64,000 nucleotides of DNA, from the NCBI GenBank assembly GCA_015478725.1, contig JADMIG010000002.1, positions 57,254-121,253 on the forward strand, written 5' to 3'. This document shows positions 6,767 to 26,981 of the stretch, piece by piece. This DNA is from Chloroflexota bacterium (lineage in GTDB: Bacteria; Chloroflexota; Limnocylindria; Limnocylindrales; CSP1-4). Under the pieces are notes generated by a model. That model worked only from the letters and a program-made list of their open reading frames with translations. It was not told where the DNA came from and did not search any database. The position numbers and the translations under genes were made by a program. Each line of letters begins with the position of its first letter. The stretch's first letter is position 1.

Positions 6767-8508
6767 CCGGCGCGAGTCTCGCCGACGCCCAGCTCTCGCG
6801 CCCGGCTCCGGCCGCGGTGCCGGGACCGCTCGACGATCGTCTCTACGACCTCGTCGAAGCGCGGTTCCGGCGGCTCCTCCGCGACAACCCGGTCCTCGCG
6901 ACCTACGTCGGGATCCACACGGAGGACGCCCGACTCGGCGACGTCAGCCATGACGCCACGCTCCAGGAGCTCGCCGACGAGCGCGCCCACCTCGCGGCGA
7001 TCGAGGTCCTCGACCCGGCGGGCCTGTCGCCCGAGGCGTCATTCGAGCGGGAGCTGGAGATCCACAACCTGCAGCGCGTCCTGTTCGACGGCGAACGACT
7101 CCGCTTCTGGGAGCGGCGATCGACCGCGATGGACGCGGTCGGGGAGGCCCTCTTCCTCGTCTTCGCCCGGGACTTCGCGCCGCTCCGGGAGCGCCTGGCA
7201 TCGGCGAGCGGCCGCCTGGCGGCCGTTCCCGACTTCCTCGCCTCCGCGCGTCGCCGACCGGCCATCCCCCAGGTCCGCCTCTGGCAGCGGCTCGAGATCG
7301 AGTCCGCCGGCGAGCTCCCGGCCCTCTTCGACGAGATCGTCGCGGCCGGCCGGGCGGCGGTCCTGCCGAGCCTGGACCAGGCTGCGCTCGAGCGAGCCGC
7401 GGCGGCGGCCCGGGTGGCCGTCGTGGACTACGCGGCGTGGCTGACGGCGTCGCTCGCCAGCGGCAGCGACGACTGGGCGATCGGCCGCGAGACGTACGAC
7501 GAGCTCATCGGCCTGCGGGCGTTCGACGGCCTCGACGCCGACGCGATCCTCGACATCGGCTGGCGCCAGCTCGCCGAGCAGAAGGCGGCCCGCATCGCCG
7601 CCGCCCGCGAGATCGACCCCACGGTTGATGAGGCGACCGTCGTTGAGCGCATCAAGTCGGACCACCCGGCGACTTTCGGGGAGGCCCTCGACGCGTATCG
7701 CGAGGTCATGGTCCGAGCGCGCCGGTTCCTCATCGAGCGGGACATCGTCACGGTGCCGTCGGACGAGCGGATCGCGGTCATCGAGACGCCCGACTACCTC
7801 CGCAACGTCATACCGTTCGCCGCCTACTTCGACCCACCCAAGTTCGACCGCGACCCGTCCGGCATCTATGTCGTGACCCCGTTCGTCACGGATGGACCGG
7901 GCGCGATGCGGGAGCACAACCACAGCTCGATCAGCAACACGAGCATCCACGAGGCATATCCCGGCCACCACCTCCAGCTGTCGGTGGGCGGCCGCCACCC
8001 GTCGCTGACGCGGCTCACGACCGAAGCCCCGGAGTTCGTCGAAGGCTGGGGCATGTATTCCGAGCAGATGATGCGCGAGCAGGGCTTCGACGACGCCCCG
8101 AACTTCCGCTTCAACATGCATACGGACGCGATCTGGCGGGCCTGTCGGATCATCCTCGACGTCCGGATGCACCGTGGCGAGATCGGGGTGGACGAGGCGA
8201 TCCGCTGGATGGTCGAGCAGACGAACTTCGAGGAACCGAACGCCCGGGCGGAGGTCCACCGCTACACGTACACGCCGACCTACCAGCTCTCGTACCTCCT
8301 CGGCAAGGTCCTCCTCCTCCAGCTTCGCGCGGACGAGCAGCGCAGGCTCGGGTCCGCGTTCCGCCTTCGCGAGTTCCACGACACCCTCCTCCGCAACGGA
8401 AGCCTGCCGATCAGCTTCCAGCGCCGCCTGCTTCGCGCCGCCGCGGCACGCCGGCCGCGCGCCGCGGGCGGCGGTCCCGGCACCCTCGACGTCGCCGCCA
8501 GGGGCTGA
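6763..8508 (+). CDS. DUF885-family protein (predicted metallopeptidase-like)
   Basis: 581 aa. The HEAYPGHH motif and overall architecture match DUF885. Start overlaps the ltaE stop (ATGA). Confidence 0.7.
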   Translation: MTGASLADAQLSRPAPAAVPGPLDDRLYDLVEARFRRLLRDNPVLATYVGIHTEDARLGDVSHDATLQELADERAHLAAIEVLDPAGLSPEASFERELEIHNLQRVLFDGERLRFWERRSTAMDAVGEALFLVFARDFAPLRERLASASGRLAAVPDFLASARRRPAIPQVRLWQRLEIESAGELPALFDEIVAAGRAAVLPSLDQAALERAAAAARVAVVDYAAWLTASLASGSDDWAIGRETYDELIGLRAFDGLDADAILDIGWRQLAEQKAARIAAAREIDPTVDEATVVERIKSDHPATFGEALDAYREVMVRARRFLIERDIVTVPSDERIAVIETPDYLRNVIPFAAYFDPPKFDRDPSGIYVVTPFVTDGPGAMREHNHSSISNTSIHEAYPGHHLQLSVGGRHPSLTRLTTEAPEFVEGWGMYSEQMMREQGFDDAPNFRFNMHTDAIWRACRIILDVRMHRGEIGVDEAIRWMVEQTNFEEPNARAEVHRYTYTPTYQLSYLLGKVLLLQLRADEQRRLGSAFRLREFHDTLLRNGSLPISFQRRLLRAAAARRPRAAGGGPGTLDVAARG

Positions 8509-9936: not shown

Positions 9937-10428
9937 ATGACCCGAGCGACCATTGCGACCGAGATCGGCGATATCGAGGTCGACCTGTACGACCAGTCCG
10001 CCCCGAAGGCGGTCTCGAACTTCCTCGCCCTCGCCCGCAAGGGGTTCTTCGACGACGTCATCTTCCATCGCGTCATCCCGGGTTTCGTCATCCAGGGCGG
10101 CGACGGCCAGTACGGGAAGAAGTCCGCGCTCGACAGCGCCAAGGTCGGCACCGGCGGACCGGGCTACCGCTTCGATGACGAGCCGATCAAGGGTGACTAC
10201 GTCCGCGGCTCGCTCGCGATGGCGAACGCCGGACCGAACACGAATGGCTCTCAATTCTTCATCTGCACGGACGACCTCACCGGCAAGCTCCCGAAGAACT
10301 ACACCCTGTTCGGCCTCGTGACGAGGGGGATGGACGTCGTGGACCGGATCGTCGCCGCGCCCCGCAACGGTCGCGACCTGCCGAACGCGCCGGTCGCCAT
10401 GACGGCCGTGACGATCCACGAGGACTGA
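9937..10428 (+). CDS. ppiB: Cytoplasmic cyclophilin-type peptidyl-prolyl cis-trans isomerase
   Basis: 163 aa. FHRVIPGFVIQGGD and MANAGPNTNGSQFFI are cyclophilin motifs. Confidence 0.85.
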   Translation: MTRATIATEIGDIEVDLYDQSAPKAVSNFLALARKGFFDDVIFHRVIPGFVIQGGDGQYGKKSALDSAKVGTGGPGYRFDDEPIKGDYVRGSLAMANAGPNTNGSQFFICTDDLTGKLPKNYTLFGLVTRGMDVVDRIVAAPRNGRDLPNAPVAMTAVTIHED

Positions 10429-10560: not shown

Positions 10561-10745
10561 GCTGCGAGAGCGGCCAGCTGCCCCAGCTCCAAGGTCATGG
10601 GTAGGTAGGGTCAGGGTAGTCGGTGCAGCCGACGTGATAGATGCCCTTGGCGCGATGGCAGAAGGCGTCCCGCTTCGGCGGATCGCACCTTCACCGGGAC
10701 AGCAGCGGAGCGGTTCCTTCGGGAACCGCTCCGTTCTTTCTGTTC
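10561..10745 (+). ncRNA. Candidate ~185-nt small RNA bounded by a promoter and an intrinsic terminator
   Basis: No convincing ORF (the overlapping track ORFs are low-complexity). Ends in GAGCGGTTCC-TTCG-GGAACCGCTC followed by CGTTCTTTCTGTT. Confidence 0.25.
10708..10744 (+). terminator. Rho-independent terminator (10-bp GC stem, TTCG tetraloop, T-rich tail)
   Basis: gagcggttccttcgggaaccgctc + cgttctttctgtt. Confidence 0.5.
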
Positions 10746-10789
10746 ACCGCCGCCGACCACGTGGGCGCGCGGGTGCTGGATCCGACCGG

Positions 10790-11345
10790 CCCTTTTGAAA
10801 CGACCTGTGGTCTGTGCGATTCTCCGCTGCGTGGCGTGCACCACAAGCGCCGAAACGATCCGGCGCTGGATCCGCGAGGGCAGCCTCCGGGCCACCTCGG
10901 TCGGCCTGCAGTACGCACCCGCCCCTCCCGTCCGGATGGCCGCGGACGATCTCGGGCGAGCCGATGCGCAACCAGGTCGCCGCGGTACGGCGGTCGACGC
11001 GCCGCGGCAGATGTGATTCTCACAGGACGTTGTCGACAGCGGAGACCTGCCCGGCTTTCGCCGGATCCGACGACCGGCCGGGGTACGGCGCGACACACGC
11101 CGTTCCCGACAGGTGGTCTTCAGGCGGGCGTTGGTCACCGACTCCCCACGGGGCGCTGGCAGATCTGAGCGTGGATCGGGCTGGGCGGGCGCGGGGATCC
11201 TGCCCGATGCCCGGCTGAGGGCCACCTGTCACCGACCTCCAGACGAGCGCCCGCATGATGGCCATCTGCCGGAATCTCGAACGGAGGGCTGGCTCGATCC
11301 GATGGGCATCCTCGTCAAGGACGCGACCGGCAATCGCATCCAGCG
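10790..11345. mobile_element. Degenerate IS630-family transposase remnants: a plus-strand N-terminal HTH fragment (10795..11010) and a ~220-bp repeat R1 (~11100..11340, minus orientation). No intact ORF
   Basis: Plus-strand RPVVCAILRCVACTTSAETIRRWIREG...QPGRRGT resembles the IS630 N-terminal HTH / RPGRPP region. 11100..11340 is ~80–85% identical to the reverse complement of 25832..26050, which lies immediately upstream of a recognisable IS630 DDE fragment. Confidence 0.55.
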
Positions 11346-11398: not shown

Positions 11399-11474
11399 GC
11401 GCCCGTAGCTCAGCGGATAGAGCGTCGGCCTCCGGAGCCGAAGGTCGCAGGTTCGAATCCTGTCGGGCGCGCCA
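11399..11474 (+). tRNA. tRNA-Arg (anticodon CCG)
   Basis: GCGCCCGTAGCTCAGCGGATAGAGCGTCGGCCTCCGGAGCCGAAGGTCGCAGGTTCGAATCCTGTCGGGCGCGCCA. Clean cloverleaf, anticodon loop CTCCGGA, encoded CCA. Confidence 0.9.
11458..11474 (+). repeat. 17-bp sequence at the tRNA-Arg 3' end (tcctgtcgggcgcgcca); left copy of a direct repeat
   Basis: Exact 17-bp copy at 12843..12859. Confidence 0.7.
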
Positions 11475-11788
11475 TTGACATACGTTTCCGTGGTCGGCCG
11501 CGCCCAGGCAGCAGAGGAACGGATACCTGCGCCGGGAGAGCGAGCGCGAAGCCGTGCGCTTTCCATCGCCGCCAAGATTGATGAGCCACGCCGTCGTGCC
11601 ATTCGGGTGGCCGACCCAGCGTCGATCGTCAAGCATGATCATCGCGACGAACACTGGCCGCGCCTTCCCAGTCCTGCGACCGACGAGCGAAAGTGTGACG
11701 ATCTCCCCGCAATACGAAGGGACGCCGAGCCTGACGAGGACCCAGAGGATGCGACCCGACCGACACTACCCTGGCCGGCGTGCGAGAG

Positions 11789-12223
11789 TCACCCGCTGTG
11801 GCCCCCTTCGCGTGCCCTCAGCACGTACGTGTCCCTGGTAAGAGTGCGGAATGACTCCGCGATGATCGCCTCGAGCACGCCGAGGTCCACCTTGTCGAGA
11901 TCCCGGATGTAAATACACCCGACACCCGTTGTGTGAGGTCCTAGCTGCGCCAGTTGTGTGCCATACCGCCCGATGCCGTCGAGCAGATAGATCGTCATCG
12001 CGGCTTTGCGCGGCGCGAAACCAGCGGCCGTCGCATCGCCCTCTCGGCCGCTCCTGTACTTGTAGTGGTACTGACCAAAGCCGATCACGCTGCCGTACTG
12101 CAGACGTGGCGACTCCCCCGTGGCTCGAGACATGAGGTCGAGCAGCTGTTCGGCATCCGCTCGCCGTTTCGGAGACGTAACCCCATCAAGGTAGGCCCGG
12201 ATGTCCTCGCTGGCCTCAGCCAT
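11789..12223 (-). CDS. DUF1801 (YdhG-like) domain protein
   Basis: MAEASEDIRAYLDGV...IGFGQYHYKYRSGREGDATAAGFAPRKAAMTIYLL. RBS AAGGGAGG sits 6 nt upstream of the ATG at 12223. The track ORF starts further upstream at 12289. Lower-GC codon usage. Confidence 0.6.
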   Translation of the reverse strand: MAEASEDIRAYLDGVTSPKRRADAEQLLDLMSRATGESPRLQYGSVIGFGQYHYKYRSGREGDATAAGFAPRKAAMTIYLLDGIGRYGTQLAQLGPHTTGVGCIYIRDLDKVDLGVLEAIIAESFRTLTRDTYVLRAREGGHSG

Positions 12224-12289
12224 GGGTGACCCTCCCTTGCCTCGCACCTGTGCATCAATGACGCCGCCGGTTGTCCGCGGCGATTCCAA

Positions 12290-12714
12290 TTACCCAATCC
12301 CTGTGAATATCAACTGGTCGTCGCGACAGTTCGTTCGAGTGTAGCGGCCGGCGTCGCGAAACCGAGTGCCTTGCGGGCGTCGATCGCTGCCCCCGACAGG
12401 TTGACGATTGCGCCGCACACCATGGTCCTCCATCGCATTGATCACGGGGTATTTGCCATGACGCAGCATCACAACCTCGTCAACGGAATCCCCATCGGGT
12501 CCGGGCGCACTGATGACCGCATTTGCTCCCTCGATCGCCTGGGCGACGGCGGTGGCGTCGGCGACCTGCCCAGCTGCGACCCGCACGCGCTCGCCGATCC
12601 GACCGACCTCCGTGGGTCGCGGACCAGCAGAGTCACGTCGTGACCCTTCGCGAGCGCCTGCTCGACGACGAGCTCACCGATACTGCCTGTGACTCCGAGC
12701 ACCGTGAGCTGCAT
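12290..12714 (-). pseudogene. Frameshifted NmrA-like / NAD(P)-binding oxidoreductase gene
   Basis: N-terminal MQLTVLGVTGSIGELVVEQALAKGHDVTLLVRDP (Rossmann GxxGxxG) in one frame (start 12714). The continuation ...GQVADATAVAQAIEGANAVISAPGPDGDSVDEVVMLRHGKYPVINAMEDHGV is in another frame (12586..12290). Break near 12600–12620. Confidence 0.55.
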
Positions 12715-12842
12715 CAGCCGATTCTGGCGAACGACAGCTCGGTAGGCGGAGCAACCGTAGCCCTGACTGGCAGAGAGGGTCGTGACATTCATCCCGTTCG
12801 AGCTCGTATCGCTCACTTGGCTGCATGCCGCCCACGTCCGAC

Positions 12843-12859
12843 TCCTGTCGGGCGCGCCA
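12843..12859 (+). repeat. Exact 17-bp direct repeat of the tRNA-Arg 3' end (attR-like)
   Basis: tcctgtcgggcgcgcca is identical to 11458..11474. Chance expectation for a 17-mer in 64 kb is ~1e-5. Confidence 0.7.
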
Positions 12860-12913
12860 CGAACACGCGTTCTATGTTGCTCAGGTTGCATGCGCCGGTC
12901 GGGCGCTCCGCCC

Positions 12914-13807
12914 CTACGTTCGACTCGGACTCCCGAGGCTGTCCACGAGTTGAACAAGCCATCGGTCGAATGCGTCTGCGAAGTCGTCGCCGAGGACGTC
13001 GAGATTCGGCTGGGGGAGCCCCTCGCTCGTGATCCGGTCCCGCAGAGACTCGACGACCCGCCGTGCCTCGATCGCGCGCACGGACGGAGACATCCCATCC
13101 TGCTTATGGAAACGAAGCACTTCGAGCGCCACACCGAACCGGGTCACCCAGTCGGGCTGGGCGATGGGCGGTCGGAGTCCCGGGAGGATCTCGCCTGGCT
13201 TGGTCGGGACGAGACGCCGCTCATTGCCCACGGTCCGTGCCTCGAGCAAGCCCGCCAGCATGAGCGCGTCCACGGCGAAGGCGACATTGGGCTTTGTGAA
13301 GCGCGTCTTGCGGGCAAGGTCGGCGACACTCAGACCGATCTGCGGAGCGGCCAACAGAGCCGCGAGCACGTCGGCCCGGGCATTCACCCCGAACGCGGCG
13401 CGCAGGCGGATGCGCAGTCGCGACTGTGACCGGGCCGATTCGAGTCGAGCCTTTCCTCGTGACGAGTACCCGGGGCGCGGCTGAGTCGCCATCGGCCAGG
13501 CCGGACCCCCGGCGGCGGCGACCGTGGCCACGTACTCGCCGATCGCTTCGGGTGGGGTCTTGAGCTCGCGCGCCACCTGCTTGAGACGCGATCCGTTGAC
13601 GTACCGGCCGTAGGCGACGCACCAGTCGGTGCTGACATCGCGCAGGCGCGCATCGGCATCGCCCAGCTCTGCCGTGAGCGCGATGAGCGCTTCGGGATCG
13701 ACCACGGCGTCGTCGGACTCGCCGACCGCGTCGACCCCGAGCGCGATCCATTGGATCCACGCCCGGTTGAGCAGGGCACTCTGGAGCGTGCTAGTCGAGC
13801 CAGCCAT
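12914..13807 (-). CDS. Hypothetical winged-helix/HTH protein, partner of the upstream nucleotidyltransferase
   Basis: 297 aa from MAGSTSTLQSALL (ATG at 13807, overlapping the upstream gene end by 17 nt). Central HTH-like LSVADLARKTRFTKPNVAFAVDALMLAGLLE. The longer track ORF (to 14302) is an antisense-overlap artefact. Confidence 0.5.
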   Translation of the reverse strand: MAGSTSTLQSALLNRAWIQWIALGVDAVGESDDAVVDPEALIALTAELGDADARLRDVSTDWCVAYGRYVNGSRLKQVARELKTPPEAIGEYVATVAAAGGPAWPMATQPRPGYSSRGKARLESARSQSRLRIRLRAAFGVNARADVLAALLAAPQIGLSVADLARKTRFTKPNVAFAVDALMLAGLLEARTVGNERRLVPTKPGEILPGLRPPIAQPDWVTRFGVALEVLRFHKQDGMSPSVRAIEARRVVESLRDRITSEGLPQPNLDVLGDDFADAFDRWLVQLVDSLGSPSRT

Positions 13808-14405
13808 CGGCGTCGTCCACCCCGAGTCGGCGGAGCGTTTCGATGAGCAGTGATCGGTAACCGGGCGATGGATCGTGCGTGACGGTCCAGCGAGCAGCGG
13901 CGAGGAGTTCGTCGCGGCCCGGACCGAGTTCGCGCAGGTCCTGTATGTGCCGGCTCCGAGGTCCCTGGTCGACGGCCGCGTAGAACTTGAAACAGACCAT
14001 GTCGAATCGACCCGCGAGCCAGGCGACGAGACCGCGGTAGTCGTGTCGTTCGAGGCGCCCTGAGAAGCCGTCAGGAAGGCCCAGATCGAGCAGCGACTCG
14101 GGACCGAGGTTGACCCAGTCGCTGGCGAGTCCGTAGGTGCGCGCGACGTCAACGACTGCGATGCGGAGCGGTTCGGGCATGGGCCGCATGGGCTTGATTC
14201 CGTCGCTCGTCCACTCGCCGAGAAGGTCGAGATCCTTCGTGGCGGGTCGCGTGACGAGCCCGCGCAGGATGAGGTTGCCGCCCCCGATGAGGACGACCTC
14301 ATAGTGGAGCCAGCGGGCCTCGAGGAGTTCTCCGAGTGCCCGGAGCGCTGTCTCGAGCTGGGTTCGTCCGATCGATGTCATTCCTCGACTGTAGACGGGC
14401 GCCAT
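13791..14405 (-). CDS. Minimal nucleotidyltransferase-fold protein (AbiEii/MenT-like)
   Basis: 204 aa. VVLIGGGNLILRGLVTRPATKDLDLL resembles the polymerase-beta-type GG...DxD nucleotidyltransferase motif of AbiEii/DUF1814 toxins. Confidence 0.5.
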   Translation of the reverse strand: MAPVYSRGMTSIGRTQLETALRALGELLEARWLHYEVVLIGGGNLILRGLVTRPATKDLDLLGEWTSDGIKPMRPMPEPLRIAVVDVARTYGLASDWVNLGPESLLDLGLPDGFSGRLERHDYRGLVAWLAGRFDMVCFKFYAAVDQGPRSRHIQDLRELGPGRDELLAAARWTVTHDPSPGYRSLLIETLRRLGVDDADGWLD

Positions 14406-14627
14406 GAAAGAGTCAATCTATCGAATCGATGCAATGAGTCTTCTTAATAGAGCACATGACCGAGCTTTTCTCGGTTCTCGCCGGTGGGTGGGCAGGCATC
14501 GGCCATGCACTGACATACCAGACGCGGCGATCATTTAGCCGACAACAGGCTGTCCGGGATCCGGATATCTGAGCCCTGTCCCGCCAAGTAGTCACACAAC
14601 GGGCCCGGCGGCTGCTATGATGACCAC

Positions 14628-14894
14628 ATGGACGTGGGCATTCGCGACCTCAAGGCACGCCTTTCAGAGCACCTCGACCGGGTGGCCCATGGTGAGGTGA
14701 TCACGGTCACCAGCCGTGGCCGACGCGTGGCGCAGATCGTGCCCATCCTGGGACGGGACAGCCTGGATCGCGGCCTCGCGGAGGGCTGGGTCACGCGTCA
14801 GGTGGAGCGCCCCCCTGAGCCGGTCCTCCGTCAGCGGCCACTTCCCGGAACACTGACGACGACCCAGCTGATCTCTCGGGACCGGGGGGCATGA
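14628..14894 (+). CDS. vapB: Type II antitoxin, Phd/YefM (VapB-type)
   Basis: MDVGIRDLKARLSEHLDRVAHGEVITVTSRGRRVAQIVP is the canonical Phd/YefM N-terminus. Overlaps the downstream PIN gene by 4 nt. TATGAT -10 element 9–10 nt upstream, so the mRNA is leaderless. Confidence 0.8.
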   Translation: MDVGIRDLKARLSEHLDRVAHGEVITVTSRGRRVAQIVPILGRDSLDRGLAEGWVTRQVERPPEPVLRQRPLPGTLTTTQLISRDRGA

Positions 14895-15295
14895 CGCTCT
14901 ATGTCGACAGCAGCGTGCTGATCAAGCGGTACGTCGCGGAGGACGACAGCGAGGATGCCGATGCGATCCTGCTCGGCGACACCGAATGGGTCACCGGTCG
15001 CCACTCGTTCGTCGAGGTTCTTCTGGCGATCCACCGCCGACTCGGGGATACGGAGCGTCACGTGGCGACGACGGCGTTCGAGCGTGACTGGCAACGCACG
15101 TTCGTTGTGGCTCTCGACGACGTGGTGTGCCGTCGCGCCGCGGAGCTCGGCATCGTCACCGGAGCTCGCTCCCTCGATGCCCTGCACCTGGCGGCGGCCG
15201 AGCGAGCTGGGGGCCGATCGGTGCCGATCGTCACGTTCGATGTGCGGCTCGCGCAAGCTGGCCGGTCCCTGGGGTTCGCGGTGATCGGGTCGTAG
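14891..15295 (+). CDS. vapC: PIN-domain ribonuclease toxin VapC
   Basis: 134 aa. The N-terminal LYVDSSVLI acidic pocket and later conserved Asp residues are typical of PIN domains. Confidence 0.85.
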   Translation: MTLYVDSSVLIKRYVAEDDSEDADAILLGDTEWVTGRHSFVEVLLAIHRRLGDTERHVATTAFERDWQRTFVVALDDVVCRRAAELGIVTGARSLDALHLAAAERAGGRSVPIVTFDVRLAQAGRSLGFAVIGS

Positions 15296-15315
15296 CGGAC
15301 GGCCCGCTTCGGCGC

Positions 15316-15831
15316 TCACGCCAGGAGCGCACCGACACGCTCGAGGGGTCGCTGCGACGGATGGGCGGTCACGCCATCGTTCAAGAAGGCCCGAGCGCAA
15401 CCACCCGCCAAGGCAGCATCGGCACCCGCACGCGCGACGACCAACGGCGAGGTCGGCACCCTCGTGGAGCTGGTCCAGATGATCCGGCGACGGGAGCCGC
15501 CGCTGAAGCCGGCGCCCGTGATCCTTCGTTTGGGCGGACCGACACCGTGCGCCGATCGTCGGGCCTTGGTGGGGCCTGCTAGCGTGAGCTCGCCGAGGGT
15601 CCCGCAGTCGGTCCATCGCGACGCCGCTTCGGCTACTTCCTCCGGGTCGAACCAGAGTGGAAGCTGCCTGTACCCCACCGAATCAGCTGTCGGGTTGGCG
15701 TGCTCGCGGTCGAGGTAGCTGTTGAACTCGGCAACCAGGGCGGCCATGGCCGCCATGGCCGCCACGAACCCCTGACGGTGCTCTTCCAGCGACAGCATCG
15801 ACAGACGCCGCGGGCGACGATCGAGTGTCAA
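15316..15831 (-). CDS. Hypothetical protein downstream of hipA (weak call)
   Basis: 171-aa ORF 13 nt after the hipA stop. The N-terminal half looks protein-like (EEHRQGFVAAMAAMAALVAEFNSYLDREH...). The C-terminal half is low-complexity and may be frameshifted. Confidence 0.25.
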   Translation of the reverse strand: MTLDRRPRRLSMLSLEEHRQGFVAAMAAMAALVAEFNSYLDREHANPTADSVGYRQLPLWFDPEEVAEAASRWTDCGTLGELTLAGPTKARRSAHGVGPPKRRITGAGFSGGSRRRIIWTSSTRVPTSPLVVARAGADAALAGGCARAFLNDGVTAHPSQRPLERVGALLA

Positions 15832-15843
15832 CGTCCGGGGGCG

Positions 15844-17094
15844 TCAGGCTCGAATCGCGTCATCGAGCACATCGAGCTCGGCACTGCCCAGGTCCAGGGG
15901 CCGGACCGTGTCGCGCCAGGTGGCGAGCGCCGCCCGGACCTCGTCGATGATGACCTCCGACTCCGATCCCGACAACCGGTAGAACGGGGCCGTCTCGCGC
16001 AGGACGTCGAGATCGCCCCGGTGGACCGCGCCATCAAGGGACAGCTCGTGCTCGGGCTTGCGAGGCGTGGGGTTCAGGTCGAAGGCCGGGGCCAGCCGCC
16101 AGCCCTCGGGCGTCCGCAGGTAGCCGTGGTTGCGCAGGTGGTCGTCACGGTGTGACGCCACGACGTTGAAGGCGGCACGCCGGAACAGCTGGGCCAGGTC
16201 CTCGCGGATCCAGCCGGGCGCCCCGTGGTCGGCGATGGCGAGGGCGATGTCGAGATAGCTCGCGTCGTCACGGTCGCGTCGAGACGTCATCGTCATCGCC
16301 GAGATGTAGAGGCGTCGCGTCCCGGGGGCCCGGTCGAACCGCCTCGCGGCGAAGATGCGGTGCCCATCATCGAGCGTCAGGAGCCGGTGCTCGGGCACCG
16401 CGATCCCGGCGCGGACCGCGAGGTCATTGAGCACGTACTCGCAGGCGCCGACATCATGGCGATCCATCCGCGACGGGAACTTGGCGATCCAGAGCGCGCC
16501 GCTCGCGCCCTCGAAGGTGGCCTTGGGTCGCGCGCCGCCGAGCGAGCTGCCCGGCGCGAGCAGGAGGGCCAACCGCTCCGCCTCGAGCGACCGAGCGCCG
16601 CGCGAGGGATGTTCGAGCTCCCGCGCGGCTGCTTCGAGCTCGCGGAGGCCGGCAATCGGCGGCACGCCCGGAGGCTCGTCGTCGAGGTACCGGCCGTCTC
16701 CGTCGACAAACCGGAGCGCCCCCATGCGCGAGAAGTCGCTGACGCCAAGCAGGAACTCCCACTCCCCGAGGGTCCGCCGGTGACGCCCCTCGGCACGGGC
16801 CAGGACGGCCTCCTGGCGCTCGAGGAGCGTCCGGCCCCAGCGGTCCGGCGCGGCGTCGGTGAAGACTGCGGCGATGCCGTCGCCGGCCCGCGGATACTGG
16901 TCGCCGGCGTACGGACCGTGAGCGGGGTCGATGACGAAGGCGTCGCGTCGGGCGAGCCAGGCCTCGTCATACCCGAACGCCACGACCGCGCCGGACGGCG
17001 ATGGGACCCGACGCAGCGTGCCCACACGGACCGGGCCGCCGAGCTCCGCGGCATCGAGCTCGACGATCACCTCGTGGGGCAGCTCGCGACTCAT
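15844..17094 (-). CDS. hipA: HipA-family Ser/Thr kinase toxin
   Basis: 416 aa. The GGARPKAT and DDHLRNHGY motifs are HipA hallmarks. Confidence 0.85.
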   Translation of the reverse strand: MSRELPHEVIVELDAAELGGPVRVGTLRRVPSPSGAVVAFGYDEAWLARRDAFVIDPAHGPYAGDQYPRAGDGIAAVFTDAAPDRWGRTLLERQEAVLARAEGRHRRTLGEWEFLLGVSDFSRMGALRFVDGDGRYLDDEPPGVPPIAGLRELEAAARELEHPSRGARSLEAERLALLLAPGSSLGGARPKATFEGASGALWIAKFPSRMDRHDVGACEYVLNDLAVRAGIAVPEHRLLTLDDGHRIFAARRFDRAPGTRRLYISAMTMTSRRDRDDASYLDIALAIADHGAPGWIREDLAQLFRRAAFNVVASHRDDHLRNHGYLRTPEGWRLAPAFDLNPTPRKPEHELSLDGAVHRGDLDVLRETAPFYRLSGSESEVIIDEVRAALATWRDTVRPLDLGSAELDVLDDAIRA

Positions 17095-17411
17095 CGGTCC
17101 GTGGTCCGCTTCATGCGCCGCGTGGGCCGGACGACGGCGTCGGCGAGCCGGCGGCCGAGCTCATCGTCCGCGGCGACGCGGGCGATGTCCTCGTCAAGCC
17201 CCAGGACGCCGAGCGCCCGGACGAGGACACCGAGCCCGACCGAGAGGTCCCCGTGCTCGAGGCTGTAGAGGGTCATGCGGGAGACGTCCATTCGCTCGGC
17301 CATCTCGGTCGCGGACATGCGCCGGCGTAGGCGGGCAAGGCGCACGCGGTCTCCCAGCGACTCCGCGAGCCGCTGGTAGCGCGGGAACGATGGCAGCGTC
17401 TGCTTGCTCAT
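17091..17411 (-). CDS. hipB: XRE-family HTH antitoxin HipB
   Basis: 106 aa from MSKQTL. The XRE-type HTH MSATEMAERMDVSRMTLYSLEHG is present. Overlaps the hipA start by 4 nt (ATGA). The track ORF extends upstream. Confidence 0.75.
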   Translation of the reverse strand: MSKQTLPSFPRYQRLAESLGDRVRLARLRRRMSATEMAERMDVSRMTLYSLEHGDLSVGLGVLVRALGVLGLDEDIARVAADDELGRRLADAVVRPTRRMKRTTDR

Positions 17412-17626
17412 GTCCAATATGTTAGACGGTAGGGTCGCTATCGTCAAGCTATTTGGACACTCGGTTGGTGCCGCCGCGGGATCGGGATCCGGACGACAAC
17501 GTGAGGGCGTCCACCGTGTTCGGCAGGCGATGGGCGAAAACGATCCGCCGCCGATCCGAGCCCGCGCGCTTCGTGCTTGTGACATATGATTGCGGGCGCA
17601 ACCACCGCGCAGGAGAGAAGTCCCTG

Positions 17627-18256
17627 ATGACCACCCAGTCAATCCCGCCGCCGTTCACGGCACCCGCACCGACCGAGCGCATCGAGCGCGTGGCTGAGGC
17701 CCTCGGGCGCCACAACATCGAGGCGATCGTCGTCGCGATGGGTGCGGAGGCCCGAGAACGGGTGCTCTCGATGATCCCAGCGGGCGCCGAGGTCCACTGG
17801 AGCAAGTCGCGGACGCTCGAGGAGATCGGCCTCACGGCGGACCTGCTCGCGGATGGCCGCTATGACGCCCTCCGACCGCGGTACCTCGCGATGGATCGGG
17901 CGACCCAGGGCCGCGAGATCCGCAAGCTCGTCGGCGCCCCGGACTTCATGCTCGGCAGCGTTCAGGCGATCACCGACGACGGCGCCCTGGTGGTCGTGTC
18001 CTACTCGGCCAGCCAGATCGGTCCGTATGCGAGCGGAGCCGGCCGGGTCATCCTCGTCGTCGGCGGCCAGAAGATCGTGGCCGATCTCGATGAAGGCCTG
18101 CGCCGCGCCCGCGAACATGTCCTCCCGTACGAGGACGCGTCCCTTCGGGCGCAGCTCGGAGTTCCGACCCGGCTTGCCGAGCTGCTCGTCATCTACGAGG
18201 CGGCGCGACCGGGTCGGATTACGGTGGTTCTGGTCCGCGAGGCGGTCGGCGTCTGA
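17627..18256 (+). CDS. LUD-domain (LutC/DUF162-like) protein
   Basis: ~210 aa from MTTQSIPPP. RBS AGGAGAG and a TATGAT-like -10 lie upstream. Similarity to the lactate-utilisation LutC/YkgG family. Confidence 0.65.
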   Translation: MTTQSIPPPFTAPAPTERIERVAEALGRHNIEAIVVAMGAEARERVLSMIPAGAEVHWSKSRTLEEIGLTADLLADGRYDALRPRYLAMDRATQGREIRKLVGAPDFMLGSVQAITDDGALVVVSYSASQIGPYASGAGRVILVVGGQKIVADLDEGLRRAREHVLPYEDASLRAQLGVPTRLAELLVIYEAARPGRITVVLVREAVGV

Positions 18257-18316
18257 CGATCGTTCTGCCGGGCGCCCGGGTGGGCGCCCGGCGATCCATG
18301 CCCGGCGCGGCTGGCT

Positions 18317-18880
18317 TCAGCCGAGGACGATGAGGTCCGTCGTGATCGGGATGGGGTTCGCCAGGCAGTCGCGGACCGGCGAGGTGTCCTGGACGTACTG
18401 GCAGAGCTCCTCGAGCTGCTCGGTGGTCGCATTCGGGCTCTTCACCCAGCCGGTGGCGCGGATCGCGCTGAAGCCGGCCCGCGGTCCGCCGAGGCCGACG
18501 AAGGTTCGCAGGTCGAGATCGCCCTCGATCTCATAGCGCAGCTCGGTGATGTCGATGCCTCGGGCGGCCGCGTTGTAGACGTAGCCGACCGCGTAGCAGA
18601 AGCCGAGCGCCTGGAGCAGGAGCTCGACCGCGTTCGGGCCCTCGTTCGAGCCGAGGAGGACCGGCGGTTCGTCGCCGATGAGGCGGAAGGCCTCGGGCCG
18701 CACCGCCGGCTGGCCGGCATGGACGAAGTCCTTGATCTCGCCGTCGTTGCGGGCGCCGGAGCGCCAGGTGCTCGATGCCTTGAACGTGAAGGCGCCGACG
18801 TTCGGGTCCTGCTGGACGGCCCCGATCGTGGCGATGAGCTGCTCGACGTTGACACCGTTCCGAGCGGTGATGGTGGCCAT
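18317..18880 (-). CDS. OsmC/Ohr-family peroxiredoxin-like protein
   Basis: 187 aa with OsmC-like conserved Cys-containing segments (GFCYAVG..., ...DCLANP). Confidence 0.75.
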   Translation of the reverse strand: MATITARNGVNVEQLIATIGAVQQDPNVGAFTFKASSTWRSGARNDGEIKDFVHAGQPAVRPEAFRLIGDEPPVLLGSNEGPNAVELLLQALGFCYAVGYVYNAAARGIDITELRYEIEGDLDLRTFVGLGGPRAGFSAIRATGWVKSPNATTEQLEELCQYVQDTSPVRDCLANPIPITTDLIVLG

Positions 18881-18984
18881 TGGTCTGCCTCCTGTCCTGC
18901 GGTCACCTCAGGTGGATGACCGCTTCGGGAGTAGAGACGCCTCGCCGATCGAAGTTATTCCGTCGCCGCGCTCGGGCAGAAACG

Positions 18985-19010
18985 GGAATAATCGGCCCAG
19001 CCGCAACGTC
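18985..19010 (+). promoter_or_regulatory. SigR/SigH-type ECF promoter-like element GGAAT-N18-GTC
   Basis: GGAATaatcggcccagccgcaacGTC lies 20–45 nt upstream of the ECF sigma gene. Consensus is GGAAT-N18-GTT. Confidence 0.3.
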
Positions 19011-19030
19011 AGGACGGACAAGCGGATCGC

Positions 19031-19693
19031 ATGCACGCAGCCGCCGAGGGAGCGATGATCGCGACTGTGACCGACGCGCAGAGCCAGCCCCAAGCGGAGA
19101 GCAGCGCCGACGAACCAGGTCGGGCGTTCGCCGCCATCGCTCGAGACCAGCTCGATGGCCTCTACGGCTACTGCGTCCGGCTCACGAGCGATCGGACCGA
19201 CGCGGAGGACCTCGTCCAGGACACCCTGCTGCGGGCGATGCGGGCGTACCCGGAGCTCCGCGACCCGGCGCGCGCGAAGGGCTGGCTGTTCGCGATCGCG
19301 ACGAATGCCTGGCGGGACCTCTGCCGCGCTCGCGGCCGCACGCTTCCGACGATCTCGCTGGACAGCCGCGACCCGGATGACGACTTCTCGTTGTTCGCGA
19401 CCCTGGCCATCGAAGACCCGTTCCCCTATTCCGACGAATTGCACCTGGACTTCCTTCGCCTGTTTCGCGACGAGGATGTCCAGGATGTCTTCGCCCGGAT
19501 CAACCCGGTCTTTCGGGCGCCCCTCATCCTCACGACGATCCACGGCTTCAGCTGCAAGGAGGCGGCGGCGATCCTCGACGTGCCGCTGGGAACCGTTCTC
19601 TCCCGCCTGCATCGAGGCCGGAAGCAGCTCGAACGGGGCATGTGGGACTATGCCGTCAGGAACGGCCTCGTGGAGGTTGGTGACGAACCATGA
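19031..19693 (+). CDS. ECF (group IV) sigma-70 factor, SigR/SigH-like
   Basis: Region 2 (DAEDLVQDTLLRAMRAY) and region 4 HTH (FSCKEAAAILDVPLGTVLSRLHRGRKQL) are present. Confidence 0.8.
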   Translation: MHAAAEGAMIATVTDAQSQPQAESSADEPGRAFAAIARDQLDGLYGYCVRLTSDRTDAEDLVQDTLLRAMRAYPELRDPARAKGWLFAIATNAWRDLCRARGRTLPTISLDSRDPDDDFSLFATLAIEDPFPYSDELHLDFLRLFRDEDVQDVFARINPVFRAPLILTTIHGFSCKEAAAILDVPLGTVLSRLHRGRKQLERGMWDYAVRNGLVEVGDEP

Positions 19694-19944
19694 TCGACTG
19701 CCGCGAGGCCGTCCGCCGGATGTGGGAATACCTCGACCACGCCCTGGAGCGCGGCCCGGCAGAGGAGTTCGAGACGCACCTCGAGGCCTGCCAGCGATGC
19801 TGTGGCGAGCTCGAGTTCTCGCGCCATCTCAAGGAGATGGTGGCGGCGACCGGCTCCGAGACGATGCCTGACCAGTTTCGCCGGCGGATCGAGTTGCTCC
19901 TCGAGGGCGGCAGCCTGCCGTCCCCTGGAGGGGACACGCCGTGA
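19690..19944 (+). CDS. Zinc-binding anti-sigma factor (ZAS, RsrA/RshA-like)
   Basis: 84 aa with HLEACQRCC (HxxxCxxC) plus an upstream Cys. Start overlaps the sigma gene stop (ATGA). Confidence 0.7.
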   Translation: MIDCREAVRRMWEYLDHALERGPAEEFETHLEACQRCCGELEFSRHLKEMVAATGSETMPDQFRRRIELLLEGGSLPSPGGDTP

Positions 19945-20795
19945 CCGACGTGCCGGTCGGCCACATCGCCGGCACGGACTTCCTTCAGCAGGACGCCATC
20001 CGCACTGCCGTCCGCGAGACGTATCGCACCGTGGGCCCGACCGACCGGCGGGTGGCGGAGCGCTTCTACCACCCGGAGCAGCTGGCAGGCCTGCCGGACG
20101 AGACGGTCCGCATGGCCCTCGGCGTGGGCGATCCGGTGGGCCGTGCCGGTCTGCGCGTCGGCGACGATGTCCTCGATCTCGGCTCGGGCGGTGGGATCGA
20201 CTGCCTCATCGCGGCGCGGTCCGTCGCGCCGGGGGGCCACGTGGTGGGCGTCGACTTTCTCGCCGAGATGATCACGCGGGCGACGTACGCGGCGACCGTC
20301 GCCGGGCTGACGAATGCCCGTTTCGTCGAAGCCGAGATCGAGGCGTTGCCGCTGCCGGACGATTCGTTCGATGTCGTGATCAGCAACGGGGTGATCAATC
20401 TCTCGCCACGCAAGGTGCGGGCGCTGTCGGAGGCGTTCCGCGTCCTGCGACCGGGTGGCCGCCTGGCGATCGTCGACCTCGTCCTGGATCACGATCTGCC
20501 GCCCGAGATCCAGACCCACCCGGCGGCCTGGGCCGGCTGCCTGTCGGGGGCCCTGTCCGAGACCGCCCTGTACAAGGGCATGCGGCGGGCGGGCTTCCGC
20601 GACGTCGGCATCGAGCCATCGAGCGACTTTGGCATCGGAGACTGCGCTCTCTACCCGCTCTTCAGCGACGAGCTCCTCGGGATGTTTCGGCGTCTCGTCC
20701 CGGCAGAGCGCCTCGGCCGGATCGCGAGGAGCGTGTATGTCGGCGCCCGCAAACCCGGCCCGCTCGAGTCGCTGCCGGGGCGCGCACGGGGCTGA
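19941..20795 (+). CDS. SAM-dependent methyltransferase, ArsM-like (arsenite methyltransferase family)
   Basis: VLDLGSGGGIDC SAM motif I with adjacent Cys, as in ArsM. Start overlaps the anti-sigma stop, so it is in the same operon. Confidence 0.65.
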   Translation: MTDVPVGHIAGTDFLQQDAIRTAVRETYRTVGPTDRRVAERFYHPEQLAGLPDETVRMALGVGDPVGRAGLRVGDDVLDLGSGGGIDCLIAARSVAPGGHVVGVDFLAEMITRATYAATVAGLTNARFVEAEIEALPLPDDSFDVVISNGVINLSPRKVRALSEAFRVLRPGGRLAIVDLVLDHDLPPEIQTHPAAWAGCLSGALSETALYKGMRRAGFRDVGIEPSSDFGIGDCALYPLFSDELLGMFRRLVPAERLGRIARSVYVGARKPGPLESLPGRARG

Positions 20796-20880
20796 GGCTA
20801 GCCGCTTGCGATGAGCGCCGCGCCAGAGGCTCCCGTGGTGAGAGGGGGAGGCGGACCGGCCGTTGCGGTAGCCTCATGCC

Positions 20881-21846
20881 ATGCTGAAGCCGAATCGAAC
20901 ACTGGCCATCGGACGCACAAGCGCCGAACCCGGAAGCCGGGCCACGGACCGCATTTCCATCGACCTCGGCGGGCCGGTCGTGGACGTGCCGGTGGTGCTC
21001 CTGAACGGAGCGCGGCCAGGACCGCGGCTGGGCGTCACCGCCGGGATCCACGGGGCGGAGTACGTCTCGATCGCCGCACTCCGCGAAGTCGCGATGAGCC
21101 TCGACCCCGCCGTCCTGTCCGGGTCGCTCGTCGCCGTCCTCACGGCGAACCCTGCCGCCTTCACCGCACGCTCGATCTACGTCAACCCGATCGACGGCCG
21201 GAACCTCAATCGCGTCTTCCCGGGTGACCCGGCAGGAACGCCGAGCGAGCAGTTGGCCGCCTGGATCTTCGACAACGTGATCCGACCCGCGGACGCGTTC
21301 GTCGACATGCATTGCGGGGACATGAACGAGGCGCTCGCGTCCTTCACGGGTATCGAGGAGACCGGCGATCCGGCGGTGGACGCACGATCGCTTGCGATGG
21401 CCGAGGCCTACGGGCTGGGGACCGTCCTCGTCGGCCCGACGCCCGGATCCACGACCACGGCAGCCGCAGCGTCGGGGATCCCCGCCGTCCTCGGAGAGGT
21501 GGGCGGCCAGGGCCGTTGGCCGGCCGAGGACGTGGCCCTCCACGCGGCGGGATTGCGCCGCGTCCTGCGCTCGCTCGGGATGGTGGACACCGCGCCGGAC
21601 GAGCCACGGCGGCCGACCCTCCGGCTCGACCACGAGGCATGGCTGCGGAGCGAGGCCGACGGGTGCTGGGAGCCGGCGGTCGCCGTCGGCGATCGCGTGA
21701 GCGTCGGCCAGGAGGTCGGCATGGTCCGCGACGTCTTCGGTGCGCCGCTCCAGGTCGTCCGCGCGCCGCTCGAGGGGGTCGTCCTTTTCCTCGTGACCTC
21801 GCTCGCGATGAATGTCGGAGACCCGCTCCTTGCGATCGCCGGCTGA
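20881..21846 (+). CDS. Succinylglutamate desuccinylase/aspartoacylase (AstE/AspA) family zinc hydrolase
   Basis: 321 aa. The AGIHGAEY motif and an M14-like metal site are present. Confidence 0.7.
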   Translation: MLKPNRTLAIGRTSAEPGSRATDRISIDLGGPVVDVPVVLLNGARPGPRLGVTAGIHGAEYVSIAALREVAMSLDPAVLSGSLVAVLTANPAAFTARSIYVNPIDGRNLNRVFPGDPAGTPSEQLAAWIFDNVIRPADAFVDMHCGDMNEALASFTGIEETGDPAVDARSLAMAEAYGLGTVLVGPTPGSTTTAAAASGIPAVLGEVGGQGRWPAEDVALHAAGLRRVLRSLGMVDTAPDEPRRPTLRLDHEAWLRSEADGCWEPAVAVGDRVSVGQEVGMVRDVFGAPLQVVRAPLEGVVLFLVTSLAMNVGDPLLAIAG

Positions 21847-21899
21847 CCGACCCGAAGTCGTCGGACGAATCCATGCGGCCGGGTGGGCCGGGCAGGCGG

Positions 21900-21965
21900 C
21901 GCCGACCGGCGGCAGCGGCGACGGTCGCTGAGCGCCGCCGACCGGCGGCAGCGGCGACGGTCGCT
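21900..21965. repeat. 33-bp tandem direct repeat x2 (+ partial) in the convergent intergenic region
   Basis: cgccgaccggcggcagcggcgacggtcgctgag repeated exactly twice. Confidence 0.8.
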
Positions 21966-22001
21966 GAGCGCCGCCGCCGCCGGGCCGATCCCAGAGACCA
22001 A

Positions 22002-22562
22002 CTAGAACGGCAGGCCGCGGCACGACACCCGCGGATTCCAGTCGGAGAAGAGACCCGCGGGGTTGTTCGACCAGAGCCACAGGTGGAGCTCGTAGAAGTC
22101 CGGCAGGTCGTAAGGGTTCGGCGCCGTGACGAGGGCCAGCCGCTTGTCGAAGAGGCGCGGCGGGCTGCTGCCGTTCGCCGCGTGCCAGGCGTCCTTGAGG
22201 ACGATGTACTCGATCGCGACGAGTCGATAGCTGCCATCGCCCCGCGGCTCGTAGACGAGTCCTTCTGGCCGGAGGGGGTTGAGCGCCGGGTCACCGACCA
22301 GGGCGCCCTTGACGTAGTGCTGGCCCATGCCGCCGACGCCGGGCTTCTGGGCGCAGCCCTTGACCGGCCCGTAGCCGGCCGCGATCGCGACGTCGAGATT
22401 GTGGAACGGCGCGGTTGCCGCCCGGACGTCGCCGAGGTTACGACCTTCATCGTTGTTCGCGGCGGAGTTGTTCGCGGCGGAGGCGACCGCCGTGCCGAGC
22501 ACGGCGACGATCGACACGAGCGCGATCGACGCGGAGATCCGCACCTTCGTGTTGCGCATCAC
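22002..22562 (-). CDS. Secreted hypothetical protein (signal peptide)
   Basis: 186 aa. N-terminal signal-like MMRNTKVRISASIALVSIVAVLGTAVASA. No recognised domain. Confidence 0.5.
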   Translation of the reverse strand: MMRNTKVRISASIALVSIVAVLGTAVASAANNSAANNDEGRNLGDVRAATAPFHNLDVAIAAGYGPVKGCAQKPGVGGMGQHYVKGALVGDPALNPLRPEGLVYEPRGDGSYRLVAIEYIVLKDAWHAANGSSPPRLFDKRLALVTAPNPYDLPDFYELHLWLWSNNPAGLFSDWNPRVSCRGLPF

Positions 22563-22810
22563 GCCACCTCCGTCGTCAGTTCATAGACCTCGGCGGTCGG
22601 GTGTCCCGCCCGCTCGTGGATCCGCATGACTGATTCTCTCGATGGCCCGTGCGACAGGCAGAAGACCTTGCCCGACTCCGCGTCGAGCCAGGCGCGCTCG
22701 AAATGGACGCTCTCGTCCCGCTCGATCGCGAGATCTCGCTCGTGGGCTTCCCTGAGTTGCTGCGCTGTGACGCCGACGAACCCGCTGTGGACATCCATGA
22801 ATGTCGCCAT
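22559..22810 (-). CDS. DUF4242-domain protein
   Basis: ~83 aa from MATFMDVH, the typical DUF4242 start. The track ORF includes a 10-aa upstream extension. Confidence 0.55.
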   Translation of the reverse strand: MATFMDVHSGFVGVTAQQLREAHERDLAIERDESVHFERAWLDAESGKVFCLSHGPSRESVMRIHERAGHPTAEVYELTTEVA

Positions 22811-22941
22811 CGACGAACCTCCGTCTATCAGCCCGGCCATGTGCCGGTGTTCGATGGAGCGAGGTTCGCGGGGAATGCATGGCGGGTCATCGGTCGAATG
22901 ACCGATGACCTCCCGCGTGCGGGGCCTACACTTCGGCGGCG

Positions 22942-25830: not shown

Positions 25831-25831
25831 T

Positions 25832-26340: not shown

Positions 26341-26405
26341 CAGAAGCCAGGCCGGACTGCTCAGCCCGTCCCGCCTGGGGCGGGGGCGAGTGGCGAGTTC
26401 AGTCC

Positions 26406-26882: not shown

Positions 26883-26981
26883 TGCAGGTTTCCTCCTCTG
26901 CTAGGTTCGATCGGGACGACCCTCAGGTGAGCCGACGCTCGGTGTCGCGACGACGCTGAGCGCGGGAGCGGAGGTCGGCAC

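Follow-up and report, generated by a model that had tools for sequence, protein, structure and literature searches.

What was inserted at the 3′ end of the tRNA-Arg(CCG) gene studied here, what kind of enzyme put it there, and how much of the DNA that follows belongs to the insertion? The window in which we ask this is a whole stretch of 64,000 nt from a Chloroflexota bacterium (GenBank assembly GCA_015478725.1, contig JADMIG010000002.1), and all coordinates below are positions in it unless another locus is named. A first-pass annotation had read 11399-17650 as an island of lower GC linked to the tRNA, bounded by a 17-bp direct repeat of the tRNA 3′ end, packed with three modules of toxin-antitoxin (TA) type, and brought in by an integrase in the classic manner. 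We are fairly confident of a smaller object: the segment 11475-12842 is what is left of a gutted integrative element that a large serine recombinase (LSR) inserted, and the genes past its distal attachment site are separate cassettes.

To compare with relatives, 80 species-level loci were fetched by means of the PPIase gene (9937-10428) that precedes the tRNA. The closest relatives found are metagenome-assembled genomes of Candidatus Limnocylindria/Limnocylindrales (Chloroflexota). Below, L-numbers are loci or contigs of relatives and P-numbers are proteins, as labelled in this analysis.

The tRNA-Arg gene, its repeat and the recombinase remnant

The tRNA-Arg(CCG) gene is intact and occupies 11399-11474 on the forward strand (ARAGORN, and Rfam tRNA at 71.9 bits), in agreement with the end at 11474 called earlier. 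Its 3′ part would be the target (attB), now turned into the left junction (attL). The attL core (11458-11474, forward strand) comprises the 3′ strand of the T-stem, the 3′ strand of the acceptor stem, the discriminator base and CCA. These last 17 nt, TCCTGTCGGGCGCGCCA, have exactly two copies in the 64 kb, the other being the one already noticed at 12843-12859. The chance of such an exact 17-mer recurrence is about 1e-5. When the match is extended, the two copies agree in 21 of 22 nt, and in 79% over a stretch of 39 nt. Thus we find an intact target tRNA together with a distal repeat of its 3′ end, as in an att-flanked element at a tRNA gene. The 1,368 bp between the repeats (11475-12842) have a GC content of 0.640 versus 0.703 for the window and form the minimum of the window GC profile, just as had been said of this 1.4-kb segment. 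A 17-mer match with three mismatches at 16943 lies within the hipA coding sequence, has no context of the element (P) arm, and was judged to be chance.

Directly after the tRNA, on the minus strand, 11475-11559 holds the last 28 codons of an LSR gene (AHGFALALPAQVSVPLLPGRGRPRKRMS), and the reading frame runs on into the antisense of the tRNA (MARPTGFEPATFGSGGRRSI). The remnant matches LSR C-termini by tblastn, 21 of its 28 residues are identical to the C-terminus of the full-length protein P0396, and the DNA aligns with the LSR 3′ end of L182. When the window is translated in all six frames, the motif HG[LFMI]A[LIV][AV]L turns up a single time, with 0.01 occurrences expected. The earlier statement that no integrase survives is therefore half right: there is no integrase or recombinase gene among the gene calls of window 1-50 kb (27.2-28.8 kb is without calls), but 28 codons of one are still in place. 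With only these C-terminal codons adjoining the att site, the element is a relic and not a functional member of its kind. Judging by these similarities, the recombinase of the element is an LSR and not a tyrosine integrase, and here the classic scenario has to be given up. The 48 nt 3′ of the tRNA were also considered as an "insertion" or insertion sequence (IS) footprint, and they are simply the natural ...VPxLPGRGRPRK... tail of one LSR subfamily.

Could this still be a P4-like island whose tyrosine integrase has been lost? An identity block that runs from the T-loop to CCA is the typical geometry of tyrosine integrases that target the T-loop, and the 17-nt block here has just that geometry. 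Moreover, almost all tRNA integrations in surveys are due to tyrosine integrases (PMC7192596, PMC10654092). But tRNA-Arg adjoins an LSR gene or what is left of one, both in the window and in those relatives that were examined, and there is no Phage_integrase domain in the called segments of the window. Nor was one found at the att site among the few tRNA-adjoining proteins of relatives that were inspected, their loci not having been systematically scanned. We find a lost tyrosine integrase hardly credible.

The right junction (attR, 12835-12859, forward strand) consists of 8 nt of the element P arm followed by the 17-nt core, and its antisense translation, ARPTGVGR, is the displaced tail of the recombinase gene. 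Positions 12836-12859 are identical in 24 of 24 nt to the attP of L089. Positions 12835-12873 agree in 35 of 39 nt with attR and flank of L096, and the matches to the attR copies of L096 and L021 span 23-35 nt. The attL core, in turn, is identical to the attP core of L089 and to the attR cores of L021, L096 and others. Both ends of an LSR element are thus recognizable, since the left end is an LSR C-terminus and the right end matches the L089 attP. The proposed site-specific integration into the tRNA 3′ end is borne out by a true attL/attR pair.

Independent Logan contigs of sequencing run SRR12886061 break at both att copies. One corresponds to window 11447-12862, and the next begins at 12833 and spans 12833-17477, with a 30-nt overlap between them. 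We considered these breaks as evidence of excision and rejected them, because the 30-nt overlaps are not at the positions expected of an empty-site or circle junction. They are likely due to k-mers common to co-occurring relatives.

Attachment sites and recombinases in related genomes

Three kinds of sequence follow copies of the core in relatives: (A) the end of an IS481-family element, (B) the 3′ end of an LSR gene, and (C) a short flank, (C)GAACACRYGTTCT. The second repeat of the window is followed by the type-C flank. Type B is where a conserved coding sequence on the minus strand has its 3′ end, ...AIYERIVV.GP.FVG.RLTPAAYAHGLALALPE.V-MARPTG..., and the ARPTG in it is what the 17-nt core encodes in antisense. 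That this might be a small stand-alone gene (all 192 first matches were of at most 183 aa and without a Pfam domain) was discarded when a profile search gave proteins of 510-517 aa with the type-B segment at their C-terminus. These are large serine recombinases because they have the Resolvase catalytic domain (PF00239, E 1.3e-11 in the 510-aa P0167), and the 517-aa P0233 also has the Recombinase domain (PF07508); the two domains were found together in two full-length relatives. The arrangement of Resolvase, Recombinase and an extended C-terminal domain is seen in relatives (P0167, P0233, L182), and the window keeps only the extreme C-terminus. A further search returned 700 LSR relatives at E <= 1e-10; the 120 listed are of ~435-530 aa, and all 120 carry PF00239.

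How do these proteins end? Sorting the 120 listed LSRs by a simple pattern in their final residues, we observe a tRNA-antisense tail in 51 (most end ...ARPTGFEPATFGSGGRRSIH, continuing from ARPTG as FEPATFGSGGRRSIH), and an alternative tail, ...ARPTGVG..IPIEGRDEW..RSA, in 39. The IPIEGRDEW-type tail is encoded by the sequence before the distal repeats of L018, L021, L066, L067 and L096, and it is contiguous with the gene in L088-L093.

All four att forms are found among related Limnocylindria. A contiguous attP is present in L088-L093 (L089 is an example), attR in L021, L067, L018, L066 and L096, and attL with an LSR remnant in 11 of the PPIase-linked loci. An attB-like form, in which the tRNA is directly followed by GAACACATGTTCT, is seen in L007 and L038, and it matches window 12833-12875 (86% over 43 nt for the tRNA 3′ end and flank of L007). 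These two look like unoccupied sites, because the type-C flank comes directly after the tRNA. Within the window, the flank at 12860-12873 (forward strand), CGAACACGCGTTCT, follows attR as it also does in L021 and L096, and it is most likely the B′ half of attB, that is, native DNA 3′ of the tRNA. A diverged type-C flank follows the tRNA in L013 as well, and an ordinary sulfate permease gene comes next. The string ACCTGTTCTG is common to the attB flank and the attP right arm (L096 and L089) at an identical offset, which fits a recombinase half-site.

The post-core flank also contains an inverted repeat, GAAC-N4-GTTC, at window 12861-12872, which is in the same place in L007, L021 and L096, downstream of a convergent gene. 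The palindrome may resemble a Gram-positive-type SOS box (LexA-type box), a reading that we did not adopt.

For the LSR of L182 (P0411) and for P0396, the attP would be ~60 bp around a sequence of the GGTTGCTAACGCGTGTCCGACTCCTGTCGGGCGCGCCATTGCAACC type. In L089, attP is complementary at 15 of 22 positions on either side of GACT|CCTG, and the next best center has 10 of 22. As far as the sequence shows, this fits the imperfect inverted repeat of ~40-50 bp around a crossover dinucleotide that LSR att sites have.

An intact example exists at the same locus. In L182, a 515-aa LSR abuts tRNA-Arg(CCG), with neighbors Beta_elim_lyase-DUF885-HisA-PPIase as in the window. L182 excepted, the LSR gene beside the att core is 5′-truncated in the PPIase-fetched relatives (L014-L074) and in the other contigs examined. 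The remnants start anywhere from residue 303 to 473, and the codons beside the core are always kept. In the 11 PPIase-linked attL loci the start lies between residues 356 and 455, and longer fragments, which start at residues 303-324, are found in L088-L093 and L096/L097, contigs obtained through other queries. The LSR gene of L088 is interrupted by an IS3-family element. Altogether, the remnants look like a graded deletion series. We conclude that a widespread LSR family of Limnocylindria uses tRNA-Arg(CCG) as its putative attB, with the predicted attP inside its own last codons, and that the relic of the window is its fossil.

In the mechanism that we propose, the LSR would insert its element into the 3′ end of tRNA-Arg(CCG). 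The attP would lie within the last recombinase codons, as a quasi-palindrome of ~46 bp centered at the T-loop/T-stem junction. Since its right arm is a copy of the tRNA 3′ end, integration would restore the tRNA (attL), and the original tRNA 3′ end would be left at the far side as the 17-nt direct repeat (attR). The C-terminal tail of the recombinase, its last ~25-35 codons, would at the same time be swapped for residues encoded by the tRNA antisense. Later deletions would have left the 28 recombinase codons and the 8 nt of the opposite arm, and a relic so reduced would be immobile on its own. Beside such an integration hotspot, the cassettes beyond attR would have accumulated in flexible DNA. 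The repeat, the recombinase remnant, the four att forms of the relatives and the composition are observed directly; the order of events is one we infer. Is the exchange of tails functional, a switch that alters the activity or the directionality of the recombinase upon integration, and not a by-product of the geometry? We consider it unlikely.

A different enzyme could have produced a repeat of this kind by duplicating its target. An IS481-family element of 1.3 kb (NF033577 match of 6.6e-72, rve and rve_3 domains) sits exactly at the tRNA-Arg/LSR attL core in L005 (12368-13684 of that locus) and L062 (12058-13374), flanked by a 16-nt duplication of the tRNA end, CTGTCGGGCGCGCCAT. The same few bases are thus the target of mobile elements of two kinds. 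If the repeat of the window were the target-site duplication of such a DDE transposase, one would understand why the 7 nt after the window tRNA (TTGACAT) resemble the IS end (TTGTCAT). However, TTGACAT is part of the LSR coding sequence with which the left end begins, the right end matches the LSR attP arm, and 11475-12842 has neither DNA or protein similarity to the IS481-family element nor terminal inverted repeats; the rve transposase and inverted repeats are present in L005 and L062 and missing here. A transposase origin of the repeat is, in our view, very improbable.

Regarding the IS481-family element itself, its ends are TGTC...GACA, the left one with repeated ATGAGTCGCGACAT motifs, and truncated copies occur in L018, L066, L074 and L080.

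How far the insertion extends

Between the two junctions, the remaining cargo of the relic is a DUF1801 gene (11789-12223, minus strand, 144 aa; PF08818, E 5.6e-10), for which the GC content at third codon positions (GC3) is 0.74 and the codon adaptation index (CAI) 0.45, versus 0.89 and 0.71 for core genes. Next to it, at 12293-12714 on the minus strand, is an NmrA-like/NAD(P)H-binding gene (Pfam NAD_binding_10/NmrA). It is a frameshifted and 3′-truncated pseudogene, because profile positions 1-31 and 42-92 of NAD_binding_10 match in different frames (12472-12714 and 12293-12586, minus strand) and positions 93-184 are missing, so that the C-terminal half is gone. Both genes had been recognized in the first pass, and so had the decay of the element: its recombinase is lost but for the 28 codons, and everything required for mobility is gone. 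A second, weak DUF1801 match lies ~14 kb past the first (26406-26882, minus strand), in the same flexible region and beside a glyoxalase gene.

The genes that had been taken for island cargo all lie distal to attR, as only 11475-12842 is bounded by att sites. The first two form a cassette on the minus strand. Gene 1 encodes a nucleotidyltransferase (NTase) of DUF6036 type (13791-14381, 196 aa; weak DUF6036 match, E 3.9e-4), and gene 2 a winged helix-turn-helix (wHTH) protein (12914-13807, 297 aa; MarR_2, E 1.2e-5); they overlap by 17 nt. The NTase start, earlier put at 14405, is corrected to 14381, as in all database homologues. There are more than 1000 of these, and the 120 best listed are all of 193-197 aa and 81-100% identical, some of them named DUF6036. 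The sequence has a G-G-x(n)-DLD motif. In other genomes the wHTH protein is always paired with the NTase, and the pair recurs as a unit in unrelated neighborhoods. L096 and L099 carry the cassette with 84-87% DNA identity, and in these the homology to the window is restricted to the cassette. The pair behaves as a mobile two-gene cassette, with a putative TA nature. It is TA-like in architecture only, since both domain matches are below the curated cut-offs. It has neither the PF08843 and PF13338 domains of AbiE nor the NTP_transf_2 and HEPN domains of MNT-HEPN. For the NTase there is no PADLOC match and no relative among solved structures in sequence searches of the PDB, and an AlphaFold2 model with a mean pLDDT of 54.9 was too poor to use.

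Of the three TA-type modules claimed, the other two are canonical. The vapBC pair is on the forward strand, with an antitoxin gene of Phd/YefM type (14628-14894; PF02604, E 2.3e-8; TIGR01552, E 8.5e-12) that overlaps by 4 nt a PIN toxin gene (14891-15295; PF01850, E 1e-10). The PIN acidic residues D6, E42, D96 and D117 are present, and domains, overlap and residues all point to a VapBC type II TA system. After orf160 (15316-15798, minus strand), a hypothetical gene without a match in Pfam, NCBIfam or PADLOC, comes the hipBA pair on the minus strand. HipA kinase (15844-17094) has HipA_C at E 2.9e-42, Couple_hipA just below cut-off at 1.7e-4, and the D-x-H-x-x-N motif as DDHLRN. HipB (17091-17411), of XRE type, has HTH_31 at E 5.8e-8, a match to the couple_hipB model below cut-off (31 bits vs. 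72, 1.4e-7), and a 4-nt overlap with hipA. By domains and gene order, we predict a HipBA type II TA system.

Between the NTase operon and vapBC lies a GC-poor divergent promoter region (14382-14627, GC 0.565). The AT-rich part pointed out before, 14406-14627, has a GC content of 0.559 and does hold a promoter-like site for the NTase operon: TTGACT-17-TACAGT, on the minus strand at 14416-14388 with its -10-like hexamer at 14388-14393, ends 6 nt ahead of the NTase ATG (14381). On the other side, TATGAT at 14616-14621 is 6 nt ahead of the vapB ATG (14628). For hipBA, a promoter-like site is found at 17447-17419, with a -10-like hexamer at 17419-17424 and the start at 17411. Because the -10-like hexamers end 6-7 nt before the NTase, vapB and hipB starts, leaderless transcripts are suggested for NTase-wHTH, vapBC and hipBA alike.

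Where does the atypical composition end? From DUF1801 through orf160, GC3 is 0.74-0.82 and CAI 0.45-0.59 (0.78-0.82 and 0.50-0.59 for the genes in 12914-15798; 0.79 and 0.51 for orf160), versus 0.888 ± 0.041 and 0.713 ± 0.075 for core genes, a contrast that is somewhat inflated because the core genes past 27 kb were picked with a GC3 filter. In hipBA, GC3 is 0.88-0.91 and CAI 0.67-0.72, the same as in core genes. The atypical codon usage ends at ~15.8 kb (~15.83 kb), with orf160 as the last such gene, and hipBA looks native. The GC and codon-usage check that had been advised gives atypical codon usage as far as orf160.

In relatives, the upstream synteny (a HisA-like gene and two PPIase genes) is kept in essentially all 80 loci. 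Downstream of PPIase, only two things are conserved: a non-coding element of ~165 nt, to which we return, and tRNA-Arg(CCG), found in 26 loci at 0.3-8.8 kb. In 8 of these 26, a direct repeat of 14-17 nt of the tRNA 3′ end lies 0.3-6 kb downstream. L067 is the sole relative with an identifiable right flank, its synteny resuming at window 31.3-37.9 kb, so that the flexible region may be ~20 kb long. DUF1801, vapBC, orf160 and hipBA are in none of the relatives' loci that were retrieved, from genomes or metagenomes, and the HipA, wHTH and DUF1801 proteins gave exact matches in this genome and its own sample only. Two further checks had been proposed to define the outer boundary. An empty site that joins the tRNA to the DNA past 17.6 kb is present in none of the 80 genome loci or 80 metagenome loci; the latter, fetched with the LUD gene that follows hipB, have no other gene in common with the window. 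As to further copies of the 17-mer, there is no third att copy in 12870-32000, where the best local scores are 13-15 of 29 and matches to P arm plus core are at chance level. A degenerate candidate at 14541-14566, upstream of the NTase gene as in L096, scores 18, and shuffled sequences score 20.2 ± 2.6. With no outer att site, no empty site, the codon shift at ~15.83 kb and the L067 synteny at 31.3 kb, the boundary at 17,650 is not established.

Homologues of the LUD gene are often directly 3′ of tRNA genes (Pro, SeC, His; L108, L120, L121, L146), and in L067 one (6334-6930 of that locus) is within an LSR element relic. The LUD-domain gene may itself be island cargo.

Is everything from the tRNA to ~17.5 kb, or further, then one composite island, made of several decayed elements lined up in tandem at one att site, with the TA cluster in an older element that has lost its distal att copy? 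Tandem insertions at this site are common in relatives, with two or three att copies in L018, L066 and L096, and to that extent the nested insertions suggested by the first-pass annotation have a precedent, though the window has no further att downstream. In L096, the type-C flank and the wHTH/NTase cassette, collinear with the window, are between two LSR att copies. The genes in 12914-15798 have the atypical codon usage given above and are absent at the locus in all 80 genome-derived relatives; the wHTH/NTase cassette recurs beside such an att copy only in the metagenome contig L096/L097, in which the tRNA is out of view. L067 synteny resumes only at 31.3 kb. On the other hand, the third att copy is missing, and the 14541-14566 candidate falls below shuffled sequence. 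The flank directly 3′ of the tRNA in L007 and L038, diverged in L013 before the sulfate permease gene, has the look of native attB, and hipBA codon usage is native. We regard a composite island as possible but rather doubtful.

Several points do weigh against the interpretation we favor, a single relic ending at attR. The P-arm match of the window beyond the core is of 7-8 nt only (a homology of ~40 nt had been suggested by eye, and the alignment does not support it). The "empty" sites of L007 and L038 come from distant genomes, with a PPIase only ~80-84% identical, none of the same species. The crossover dinucleotide we infer from symmetry only. DUF1801 and the NmrA-like gene may or may not be original cargo. 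And what follows attR may not be native attB but the eroded left end of an earlier element in a tandem array; L096 has this flank and the wHTH/NTase cassette between two LSR att copies. The TA cluster, or at least some of it, would then be cargo of an element. Still favoring the single relic, we place wHTH/NTase, vapBC, orf160 and hipBA outside the att-bounded element, as separate accessory cassettes in flexible DNA.

Two other features of the window deserve mention. The conserved non-coding element (10577-10740, forward strand, ~165 nt) is 3′ of the PPIase gene in 79 of the 80 Limnocylindria loci, with 75-90% nucleotide identity and substitutions without 3-nt periodicity, and it matches no Rfam family. 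In the predicted structure there are a closing helix that never varies, hairpins within it and an intrinsic terminator. Compensatory changes are many, and three of the pairs show 13, 18 and 7 double changes. We propose it as a candidate new small RNA. The annotated 204-aa ORF that overlaps it (10611-11225, minus strand; GC3 0.72, CAI 0.44) is probably spurious. So is, probably, a 94-nt tRNA-Pro(CGG) that ARAGORN calls at 23730-23823 (minus strand) within the gene for a 962-aa AAA_16/GerE regulator, for which Rfam gives no support.

Comparison with known systems

What does this mean for the annotation of the locus? We suggest that tRNA-Arg be annotated as a dead integration scar beside flexible DNA, and not as a 6-kb mobile island, and that the three TA-like cassettes be treated as separate acquisitions. 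The scar also led us to a large set of serine integrases that apparently target a tRNA gene. Since all four att forms are on hand, together with an intact LSR at the corresponding locus, a direct recombination test is straightforward, and the family could add to the serine-integrase toolbox a tRNA-directed enzyme with a long identity block.

Tyrosine-integrase islands linked to tRNA genes, P4-like or other, are alike in the tRNA 3′-end target, the restoration of the tRNA, the distal repeat of 17 nt, the atypical composition, the accessory cargo and the tandem arrays at one site; such arrays of integrative elements have been described (PMC7192596). They differ in that the recombinase here is predicted to be a serine and not a tyrosine enzyme, cut to 28 codons in an element of 1.37 kb. 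In a survey of mapped elements, 44.5% of tyrosine integrases were in t(m)RNA genes, versus 14 of 297 serine integrases (4.9%), and that paper states that tRNA use by serine integrases had not been previously reported and that proof is needed (PMC7192596). In mycobacterial prophages, it is tyrosine integrases that use the tRNA sites, and the common cores of serine integrases are short (PMC10654092).

The LSRs of phiC31, Bxb1, A118 and SCCmec (Ccr) resemble the relatives found here, which are of ~500 aa with Resolvase (two also with Recombinase), have a Cys-rich, coiled-coil-like C-terminal part, and use an attP that is quasi-palindromic over ~46 bp. The known LSRs have mostly protein-coding or intergenic targets and short common cores, whereas here the target is a tRNA and the identity block is of 17-22 nt. 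Unlike in the well-studied serine integrases, the attP of this family is embedded in the 3′ end of the recombinase gene itself. SSV1-type archaeal integrases are alike in that integration alters the integrase ORF. In SSV1 a tyrosine integrase gene is split in two, whereas here the last ~25-35 LSR codons would be exchanged and the gene stays intact, as in L182.

Remnants of the CIME type also keep attL and attR and have lost the recombination module, and the relatives show arrays formed by repeated integration. The relic of the window differs in that its P arm is eroded to 8 nt, and for this reason mobilization in trans is doubtful. Past attR, the putative VapBC and HipBA agree with the type II TA systems of those names in domains, antitoxin-first order, 4-nt overlaps and catalytic residues, and we noted no difference. 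For the NTase/wHTH pair there is no match among the described TA families (AbiE, MNT-HEPN).

The logic of a tRNA-linked island, with its 3′-end repeat, its decay and its tandem arrays, is textbook; the type of recombinase is not. The feature in the window is an ordinary relic, and it belongs to a family of tRNA-targeting LSRs that is moderately unusual.

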